Origin: Alphaproteobacteria bacterium
GTDB lineage: Bacteria > Pseudomonadota > Alphaproteobacteria > Rs-D84
DNA: 64,000 nucleotides
Assembly (NCBI GenBank): GCA_017616785.1
Contig: JAFZXK010000019.1
Coordinates: 5,321-69,320, forward strand
Reading direction: 5' to 3'
Shown here: one piece after another, positions 46,041 to 46,087 of the stretch
Position numbering within the stretch: position 1 is the first letter of the stretch
Layout: every line of letters starts with the position of its first letter
Notes under the pieces: model-generated
The model's input: only the letters and a program-made list of their open reading frames with translations
Databases searched by the model: none
What the model was told of the DNA's origin: nothing
Position numbers and translations under genes: made by a program

Positions 46041-46087
46041 TCACTACCCACTACCCACTAACCACTCACACTAACACTAGCCACTAA
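46041..46087 (-). repeat. degenerate heptad array (CCACTAA-type on + strand), seven units, containing the mreB stop codon
   Basis: tcactac ccactac ccactaa ccactca cactaa cactag ccactaa. Confidence 0.85.

Follow-up and report, generated by a model that had tools for sequence, protein, structure and literature searches.

We analyzed a family of short tandem repeats in a 64,000-nucleotide (nt) stretch of contig JAFZXK010000019.1 from an uncultured alphaproteobacterium (here called the window), taking as our focus the array at positions 46041 to 46087, which overlaps the stop codon of mreB. The window harbors seven such arrays, and one rule fits all of them (7/7): the 5' end of the G-rich strand abuts the border of the nearest open reading frame (ORF). 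Because of this, the units read TTAGTGG in the sense of a gene right after its stop codon and CCACTAA in the sense of a gene right before its start codon or promoter. The same placement was found for 104 of 125 arrays elsewhere and for inverted pairs of arrays (14:0), and it is the placement rule of a published class of repeats. In our assessment, the chances are about even that the arrays are local, degenerate members (CCACTAA/TTAGTGG) of that widespread class, the bacterial intergenic heptanucleotide simple-sequence repeats, which would be made by slippage and tolerated at ORF borders.

Seven arrays in the window share a CACT core and one polarity

An earlier note, made from the letters of this DNA alone, had listed seven arrays, and all seven were found (5169 to 5202, 5234 to 5265, 10791 to 10821, 13129 to 13160, 41793 to 41816, 46041 to 46087, and 61491 to 61522). 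A detector requiring at least four CAC[TC]/[AG]GTG cores at a spacing of 5 to 8 nt returned exactly six arrays in the 64 kb (5234 to 5263, 10796 to 10819, 13130 to 13152, 41794 to 41816, 46042 to 46085, and 61491 to 61514), while 200 dinucleotide-preserving shuffles averaged 0.005 arrays and never gave more than 1. The window thus lies far above chance. The seventh array (5181 to 5197) has three cores and falls below the threshold of the detector.

The note had described the unit as a heptad of 6 to 7 nt. The spacing of 6 to 7 nt was confirmed, but what recurs is a CACT core (AGTG on the complementary strand) and not a strict heptad. Each core is followed mostly by an A, then by A, C, or G, and optionally by a C. 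Tandem Repeats Finder reported a period of 7 (or 6 to 7) with 80 to 90% matches at 10796 to 10821, 13129 to 13152, and 46042 to 46087. The arrays are thus tandem, head-to-tail repeats like those of the intergenic heptanucleotide class, with a spacing that mixes 6 and 7 nt in the window. They also share the non-coding bias of that class, all being intergenic or overlapping only the last codons of a gene, and their lengths and unit orders differ at every site. Rfam gave no match to the arrays of the window, where it identified four tRNAs and nothing else, or to those of 18 array-rich loci from elsewhere.

Five arrays lie at gene 3' ends (lipoprotein, ychF, queH, mreB, and parB) and carry TTAGTG-type units on the sense strand, in the single orientation that the earlier note had given them. 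The arrays at 5169 to 5202 and 10791 to 10821 have the opposite orientation, with CCACTAA in the sense of the downstream gene, and stand before a start codon or promoter. The arrays and the hairpins next to them are as follows, with the gene context taken from ORFs, Pfam matches, and gene calls on strain contigs.

5234 to 5265, minus strand: array 1, (T/A)AGTG units in the sense of a gene for a 143-amino-acid lipoprotein, whose TAA stop (5263 to 5265) is the first unit.
5217 to 5232, minus strand: hairpin GGGCGCGGTTGCGCCC, G+C rich and followed by GTTTTTCTTT on the minus strand, terminator-like, between arrays 1 and 2.
5169 to 5202, minus strand: array 2, CACTA units in the minus-strand sense, upstream of a gene for a 428-amino-acid PilO-like protein starting at 5131; clear cores at 5181 to 5197.
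10791 to 10821, plus strand: array 3, CACT units when read in the direction of the plus-strand gene downstream (its ORF from 10843, called start at about 10864).
13129 to 13160, minus strand: array 4, TAGTG units in the sense of ychF, whose TAG stop (13158 to 13160) lies inside; the distal end is the breakpoint of a strain-specific indel.
41793 to 41816, minus strand: array 5, TAGTG units in the sense of queH, whose TAG stop (41802 to 41804) lies in the third unit.
46041 to 46087, minus strand: array 6, the focal array, seven units with TAGTG in the sense of mreB, whose TAG stop (46084 to 46086) is the first unit.
61491 to 61522, plus strand: array 7, AGTG units in the sense of parB, 32 nt after the parB TAA (61457 to 61459).
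61528 to 61545, no strand assigned: hairpin CACCGGCAATCGCCAGTG with an A-run and T-rich flanks, resembling a bidirectional terminator common to parB and a convergent gene for a 291-amino-acid protein.

Array 3 is directly followed by an extended -10-like element, TGATATAAT, at 10828 to 10836. Beyond array 6 stand a promoter-like TTGCAA-N17-TATAAT and then the tRNA-Val gene. The final codons of queH are encoded by units of array 5. The last 16 codons of this gene (41802 to 41852), encoded by a hairpin, GTCTCCGCAAAGCGGAGAC (41822 to 41842), and by array units, are not conserved in comparison with a relative (contig L247), and the conserved part of the QueH protein stops at CGCEFSMR.

The polarity holds across phyla

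The earlier note had made the presence of arrays beyond the window a point to be checked, and they proved to be widespread. We scanned one genome per GTDB species (596 Gb) with the pattern CACTN{2,3}CACTN{2,3}CACTAACCACT, which has 19 specified bases. At least 120 loci matched, compared to about 17 expected by chance, and they represent genuine arrays, often much longer than the pattern, including arrays in isolates and closed chromosomes. Among the carriers that can be cultivated are Megasphaera sp. WILCCON 0056, Parabacteroides sp. 52, Thiohalocapsa halophila DSM 6210, and Plectonema LEGE 06105. The carriers listed belong to about a dozen phyla and comprise Chloroflexota, Acidobacteriota, Planctomycetota, Bacteroidota, Fibrobacterota, Armatimonadota, Poribacteria, Bacillota (Ruminococcus, Dialister, Megasphaera, and Selenomonadales), Cyanobacteria (Stigonema, Scytonema, and Plectonema), Alpha- and Gammaproteobacteria, Bacteriovorax, Treponema, Victivallales, and Kiritimatiellaeota, among others. 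Alphaproteobacterial metagenome-assembled genomes (MAGs; "Candidatus Enterousia" and others) show the mixed 6- and 7-nt spacing of the window, while most related arrays of the other genomes consist of regular 7-nt units. An attempt to place the Enterousia-like MAGs near the window organism by homology failed, their 8-kb blocks having no orthologous genes in common with the window.

To determine the orientation outside the window, ORFs were predicted with a simple longest-ORF gene model and each array was oriented with CACT reading 5' to 3'. Of 125 intergenic arrays, 104 lay closer to the ORF border on the 3' side of the CACT strand (p=2e-14), the median distance being 14 nt on this side and 118 nt on the other. 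This polarity held in both kinds of co-directional gene pairs as well as in convergent and divergent pairs, was unchanged with an ORF cutoff of 150 amino acids, and was also seen in 23 of 26 arrays of the same loci that had not been selected by the search pattern. Arrays abutting a stop codon were G-type in the sense of the gene (median, 5 nt), and those abutting a start codon were C-type and ended 3 to 26 nt before the ATG, often just ahead of the Shine-Dalgarno sequence. Start-proximal arrays numbered 33 and stop-proximal ones 56, and 13 of 171 arrays lay within predicted genes. All 14 inverted pairs had the G arm first and none the C arm. Other G/C-asymmetric heptads of these loci lean the same way (24 versus 13).

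Replication orientation was also considered as an organizing principle and rejected, the link between array orientation and local GC skew (odds ratio, 0.42; p=0.018) being weak and far weaker than the ORF-border rule.

Heptad arrays are a general phenomenon, in which CCACTAA is a frequent but non-unique unit. Among tandem repeats of other sequence in the 120 genome loci, a period of 7 was the commonest (156 arrays). In viral contigs, (CCACTAA)3 was found at 42 loci, two permuted heptads of the same composition at 18 and 16 loci, and an octamer at 1. A hexamer control saturated and was uninformative in these contigs, its matches being probably in-frame coding repeats, and later scans suggested that many viral matches to a 16-nt pattern are period-6 repeats. 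The contigs in question are from IMG/VR (L007 to L126 and L253 to L289), giant-virus MAGs included, and carry both CCACTAA-type and permuted heptad arrays.

Arrays are young additions to intergenic spacers

The proteins closest to the MreB of the window come from organisms named Alphaproteobacteria or Rickettsiales bacterium. No arrays were found in 84 kb from relatives (contigs L247 to L250), in which MreB is 87 to 94% identical at the amino acid level and mreB and the neighboring aligned segments are 71 to 82% identical at the nucleotide level. In these relatives mreB ends in TAT TAA and a terminator hairpin follows (directly so in L247 and L248), whereas the window reads TAT TAG TGG. Similarly, the hairpin directly follows parB in L248, while in the window about 30 nt and an array separate the parB stop codon from the corresponding hairpin, so that an array has been inserted between stop and terminator. 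As an observation apart, mreB and the tRNA-Val gene of the window have no intrinsic terminator between them, unlike the relatives with their hairpin after mreB, and a near-consensus sigma-70 promoter of the tRNA-Val gene lies at 45975 to 46003, about 35 nt past the mreB array.

Sister species (83 to 93% nucleotide identity) and the same strain beyond the window (contig L420) do carry arrays, partly at other sites. An inverted pair between infC and xseB is present in both L420 and the sister contig L419, with a different order of units. In L419, arrays follow ompA and precede dnaX (one each), and parB has none behind it. These further arrays of the clade obey the polarity as well (L420, 3402 to 3430 and 3451 to 3480; L419, 234 to 269, 7883 to 7912, 7949 to 7971, and 10446 to 10474). 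The mreB array, with its seven units in the window, is represented in contigs L251 and L252 by one unit at the stop codon and three more beyond a structured insert of about 70 nt. This insert, CTCGTCTTCGTCC...GGGCTGTACCCTGGC (L251, 1312 to 1380; L252, 1239 to 1307), may be a small element inserted into the array, and no copy of it was found in the window or in the relatives.

At closer range, strain contigs of 99.98 to 100% identity have identical arrays. Contig L003, from a strain of 97 to 98% identity, differs by point changes and by an indel of 1.7 kb with its breakpoint at the distal end of the ychF array; there are no flanking direct repeats at this junction. The segment missing in L003 (11445 to 13142) encodes a PHP-domain protein (11467 to 12282) and a putative rhamnosyltransferase (12318 to 13088). 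The ychF array (window versus L003), the mreB array, and the infC-xseB pair thus display the variation in length and sequence that is typical of the heptanucleotide class. Overall, the arrays are lineage-specific, young, and fast-turning-over additions to non-coding spacers: they appear and move within a genus-level clade, in which the same gene ends otherwise carry ordinary terminators.

Two further differences in gene content were noted. Next to tRNA-Met (9558 to 9634), the segment 9558 to 10612, including an ORF at 9971 to 10546, is replaced in L003 by two other genes (L003, 4217 to 6059) and looks like a tRNA-adjacent variable island. The interval from the ompA-like gene to parB holds the 291-amino-acid ORF in the window (61554 to 62701) and in L420 to L422, and a 134-amino-acid PNPOx-like gene in L419 (10418 to 10958) and L423 (5012 to 6036). 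In L423 an acetyltransferase joins the PNPOx-like gene, and the array positions differ in step with gene content.

Overlap with stop codons and frame closure

As the earlier note had observed, the stop codon is part of the array at four genes, namely, the TAA of the lipoprotein gene and the TAG of ychF, queH, and mreB. The note had taken this for a natural all-frame stop cassette, which would have been selected to stop read-through or frameshifted ribosomes or to insulate neighboring genes translationally. What stands of this proposal is that the arrays are non-random, sit on stop codons, and have a fixed sense. With a 7-nt unit, the TAG of the G strand and the TAA of the C strand do rotate through all frames, and the closure of all three frames within 30 nt was confirmed after mreB (4, 15, and 23 nt) and ychF (0, 10, and 23 nt). 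In other genomes, stops occur in all three sense frames in 47 of 56 stop-proximal and 22 of 33 start-proximal arrays. Furthermore, heptads other than CACT types in the same loci have stops on both strands 1.8-fold more often than expected from permutations of their letters (21 versus 11.9).

However, closure is only partial in the window. At the lipoprotein end frame +1 closes only at 55 nt, at the queH end only frame +1 closes (at 55 nt) within the 60 nt examined, and at the parB end all-frame closure takes about 53 nt, leaving full closure at only two or three of the five gene ends. Arrays of the same family are equally systematic upstream of starts, in the opposite orientation (2/7 in the window; 33 versus 56 elsewhere), and stops on both strands leave the orientation rule unaccounted for. 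The published unit GGGAATC, which by our own reading has no stop codon on either strand, obeys the same rule and overlaps stop codons too; CCACTGA, CCACTGC, and CCACTAC are common although stop-free on one or both strands, and heptads without any stop are not depleted (27 observed, 27.5 expected). The orthologous 3' ends, a comparison that the earlier note had suggested, also went against it: since the relatives manage without arrays, and mreB ends in TAA plus a terminator in L247 and L248, no conserved need for back-up stops is visible. We therefore consider a dedicated stop cassette improbable and not the best explanation. It finds little specific support and stands only in part, a weak and generalized trace of it surviving in the excess of heptads with stops on both strands. 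Annotators can treat a stop codon within such an array as an ordinary result of where the array sits and not as a special signal.

Inverted pairs fold into long hairpins

Neighboring arrays of opposite orientation fold into long hairpins that adjoin or surround terminators and U/A runs. Arrays 1 and 2 with the enclosed GGGCGC...GCGCCC hairpin (5160 to 5275) gave a predicted energy of -41.8 kcal/mol (z, -5.0), and the infC-xseB pairs gave -36 kcal/mol in L420 (z, -4.0) and -44.1 kcal/mol in L419 (z, -8.4). Co-evolution of the two arms was considered and rejected: cognate arms reached -26.0 kcal/mol compared to -22.6 kcal/mol for non-cognate ones, with a median rank of 0.38. Arms that belong together pair barely better than arms taken from other loci, and pairing therefore follows from the shared motif. 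A role as parts of terminators was likewise dismissed, a strict detector of a hairpin plus T-run being positive at 6 of 159 distal and 3 of 159 proximal sides, so that strictly defined terminators adjoin only about 4% of arrays. In a MAG of the Selenomonadales (L129, 320 to 602), a G-first inverted pair adjoins a cobalamin riboswitch (424 to 602, minus strand).

Relation to described repeats

The earlier note knew of no described natural family with this composition and placement. This does not hold for the class, which has been published (PMC4692102 and PMC4679880), while literature searches for the literal 7-mers and 14-mers of CCACTAA/TTAGTGG found no bacterial description. We know of no survey of 5- to 11-nt repeats or of STRR that reports a CCACTAA unit, its spread over phyla, or its border polarity. 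Heptamers of the STRR type were reportedly described in cyanobacteria by Mazel et al. in 1990.

The closest counterparts are the heptamers of Rehm et al. (PLoS One 2015, PMC4692102), GGGAATC in two Xanthomonas genomes and GGGGA(C/T)T in Nostoc. Their G-rich strand is on the coding strand up to 50 bp after the stop codon, overlap with the stop codon included, or on the non-coding strand up to 50 bp before the start, and, however that ORF is oriented, the ORF closest to an intergenic repeat lies on the 5' side of its G strand. The repeats also come as inverted pairs and differ in length and sequence from one close relative to the next; they could not be assigned a function (PMC4692102). Both these heptamers and the present arrays are dispersed, intergenic, tandem heptamers with G/C strand asymmetry and an identical placement rule. 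They differ in unit sequence, GGGAATC being stop-free in our reading while CCACTAA/TTAGTGG carries stops, and the heptamers of Rehm et al. have GGG runs, a preference for four units, and G-quadruplex (G4) formation in vitro, whereas the present arrays have GG at most and a mixed 6/7-nt period. Our arrays accordingly lie outside the narrow group of G4 heptamers with at least four GGG tracts and four units.

In a Beggiatoaceae genome, MacGregor (Front Microbiol 2015, PMC4679880) reported 169 sets of TAACTGA repeats, most of which stand a few nucleotides before a start codon; such repeats also occur in cyanobacteria and some Bacteroidetes, and S1, Csp, or CsrA was suggested as a binder. Like CCACTAA, TAACTGA is a G-poor heptamer with the shared ACT(A/G)A and with stop triplets in the unit; it comes in 2 to 6 copies per set and in many sets per genome, mostly forward before starts, with a patchy phylogenetic distribution. 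In contrast, it was described almost only at starts, while five of the seven arrays here are at stops in the complementary orientation, and the arrays here are built from CCACTAA and its variants, with only ACT(A/G)A in common. According to the summary in PMC4679880, Mrazek (2007) found heptanucleotides to be the most abundant long simple repeats of the 5- to 11-nt class, lineage-specific and mostly non-coding, and proposed polymerase slippage as their origin.

REP/BIME elements are likewise short, dispersed, and extragenic, often at gene 3' ends near terminators, and the inverted pairs here form hairpins as well. A REP is one imperfect palindrome of 20 to 40 bp that carries a GTAG or CGTC tag and is linked to RAYT transposases, whereas we observed direct tandem arrays that are mostly unpaired, only arrays 1 and 2 of the window forming an inverted pair. 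Engineered three-frame stop cassettes resemble the mreB and ychF ends in having stops in all frames and on both strands within a few tens of nucleotides; they differ in that closure is incomplete at the other ends, the orientation rule is unexplained, and stop-free heptamers are placed alike. As for a known insertion sequence (IS) or miniature inverted-repeat transposable element (MITE), no signature of terminal inverted repeats or target-site duplications and no match to a known element or family was found, array lengths differ at each site, and the L003 junction lacks direct repeats.

The present data add to this literature the CCACTAA/TTAGTGG unit family, for which we found no name in searchable publications and which is carried by an uncultured alphaproteobacterium as well as by members of about a dozen other phyla. 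They also provide an independent, cross-phylum confirmation of an ORF-border polarity earlier reported for three genomes, including the all-or-none occurrence of G-first pairs.

Proposed origin and possible roles of the arrays

Our favored reading is that of slippage-made repeats tolerated at borders. Slipped-strand mispairing or template switching, with a register of 7 nt, would create and remodel the arrays, which would persist only at sites and in an orientation that make them harmless or of slight use. The G-free CCACTAA strand, with no ATG, GTG, or TTG, no Shine-Dalgarno-like run, and poor folding, may make a tolerated or even favored leader, and the TTAGTGG strand may be tolerated behind a stop codon. 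The overlap with stop codons would then be a by-product: an array butts on an ORF and the first in-frame TAG or TAA becomes the stop, as may have happened at mreB, where TAT TAA of the relatives corresponds to TAT TAG TGG. Because a 7-nt unit with TAG or TAA closes every frame, arrays can sit on ORF borders without long C-terminal extensions; frame closure would thus make an array a tolerable neighbor of an ORF and not be its purpose.

Several points weigh against this reading. Slippage alone leaves unaccounted for how one unit family quickly seeded at least 13 sites in the clade, why CCACTAA is about 2.5 times commoner than its permuted controls in viral contigs and recurs across phyla, and why the polarity is so strict, and the selective reasons for the orientation are something that we infer. 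The distal and proximal halves of arrays do not differ in unit homogeneity (0.72 versus 0.69, p=0.57), giving no sign of directional growth. Near-identical strains show no polymorphism in unit number, and the degenerate arrays of the window are therefore not currently hypermutable. Finally, the CACT core looks far better conserved than the linkers in the window, as would be expected of a binding array, although the detector is biased towards such a result; a position-agnostic test on the genome loci gave 5 to 24% mismatch per position with mild heterogeneity and did not support a constraint on the core over the linkers. Since the quick seeding, the cross-phylum recurrence, the strict polarity, and the absent growth gradient are left unexplained, a functional reading keeps real weight, and the arrays could be a set of protein-binding motifs, a hairpin module, or a coupling or insulation pad.

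Among functional explanations, binding of a protein is the most probable, though still unlikely. AGUG/CACU arrays would be putative sites for a single-strand nucleic-acid binder (S1, a cold-shock protein, or an oligomer in the style of HutP or TRAP), with CCACUAA leaders as putative translation standby or enhancer sites and UUAGUGG tails acting on mRNA 3' ends. The UAG-N4-UAG spacing resembles the HutP site, and (G/U)AG triplets with spacers of 2 to 3 nt resemble those of TRAP. This explanation would fit window arrays that keep the CACT core while linkers vary in sequence and length (6 or 7 nt), as well as the arrays of other phyla that end 3 to 26 nt upstream of the ATG, often before the Shine-Dalgarno sequence. 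Furthermore, S1, Csp, or CsrA was proposed for TAACTGA repeats (PMC4679880), and in a Nostoc preprint the deletion of heptamer repeats changed reporter output, with no mechanism given. On the other hand, the two contexts expose complementary RNAs, which no single binder could serve, and array 3, being upstream of the extended -10 element, may be outside the mRNA of its downstream gene. Arrays are missing from close relatives and occupy different sites in sister species, these genomes also hold many unrelated heptads, and the contrast between core and linker is largely gone in the unbiased test. Somewhat more doubtful is the broader proposal that all G/C-asymmetric heptad arrays, in whatever bacterial phylum, share the border polarity and that it reflects an unrecognized conserved mechanism rather than passive tolerance. 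A polymerase entering an ORF from either end would just have copied the C-rich, G-free strand into RNA, and a candidate role is a pad for transcription-translation coupling or antisense silencing, where naked C-rich RNA would recruit Rho or S1 if no ribosomes load; another candidate is a mutational process that is directional, bounded by ORFs, and has a 7-nt register. If this were true, the CCACTAA family would offer a tractable, phylum-spanning handle on the dominance of heptamers among long bacterial repeats. We regard it as quite unlikely that the arrays are structural modules, in which an inverted pair (G arm, loop, C arm) would be a REP/BIME-like hairpin serving as terminator extension, RNase III site, or mRNA stabilizer, with single arrays as half-elements. 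Compared with shuffled sequence, pairs do fold much more stably; they surround or adjoin terminator hairpins and U/A runs, occur only G-first, and have kept their infC-xseB position in two species despite a differing unit order. Five of the seven window arrays are single, though, the advantage of cognate arms is slight, the polarity rule by itself predicts the G-first order, and strict terminators are rare neighbors.

A footprint of mobile elements or recombination, with arrays marking insertion sites or cassette borders or being seeded by an element that targets ORF ends, is distinctly improbable, few junctions having been compared. It would explain why differences in gene content between strains end at arrays, as with 11445 to 13142, absent in L003 with a breakpoint at the ychF array, why array positions near ompA and parB shift with the replacement of the 291- by the 134-amino-acid gene, and why a structured insert of about 70 nt interrupts the mreB array of sister species. 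Small mobile repeats were reportedly found nested in cyanobacterial heptamer arrays by Elhai in 2008. However, single arrays have no terminal inverted repeats or target-site duplications around them, the L003 junction lacks direct repeats, the gene lists show no transposase or integrase next to arrays, and the insert is absent from the window. Rehm et al. likewise found no association with mobile elements and an increased local genomic stability (PMC4692102). It is very improbable, lastly, that the G strand folds into a predicted G4 modulating transcription or translation, as proposed for GGGAATC and GGGGA(C/T)T. The polarity is that of the published G4-forming heptamers, and GG runs recur about every 7 nt on the G strand, but the units have no GGG, arrays 1, 4, and 5 have only two to three GG runs, and many units read AGTGT or AGTGA, without GG.

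Other repeats in the window

Repeats of other kinds were seen at two places. An AT-rich, repeat-rich spacer (14950 to 15460), with a 21-nt sequence present twice at 15255 to 15296 and repeats of 9 to 11 nt at 15236 to 15380, lies upstream of VirB3/VirB4 type IV secretion genes (15463 to 18179). A 19-nt unit, TTTTTTGTTGCAAATTCAA, is repeated 2.9 times (63% matches) at 31098 to 31152, just upstream of an ORF at 31169 and near tRNA-Thr (31718 to 31793).

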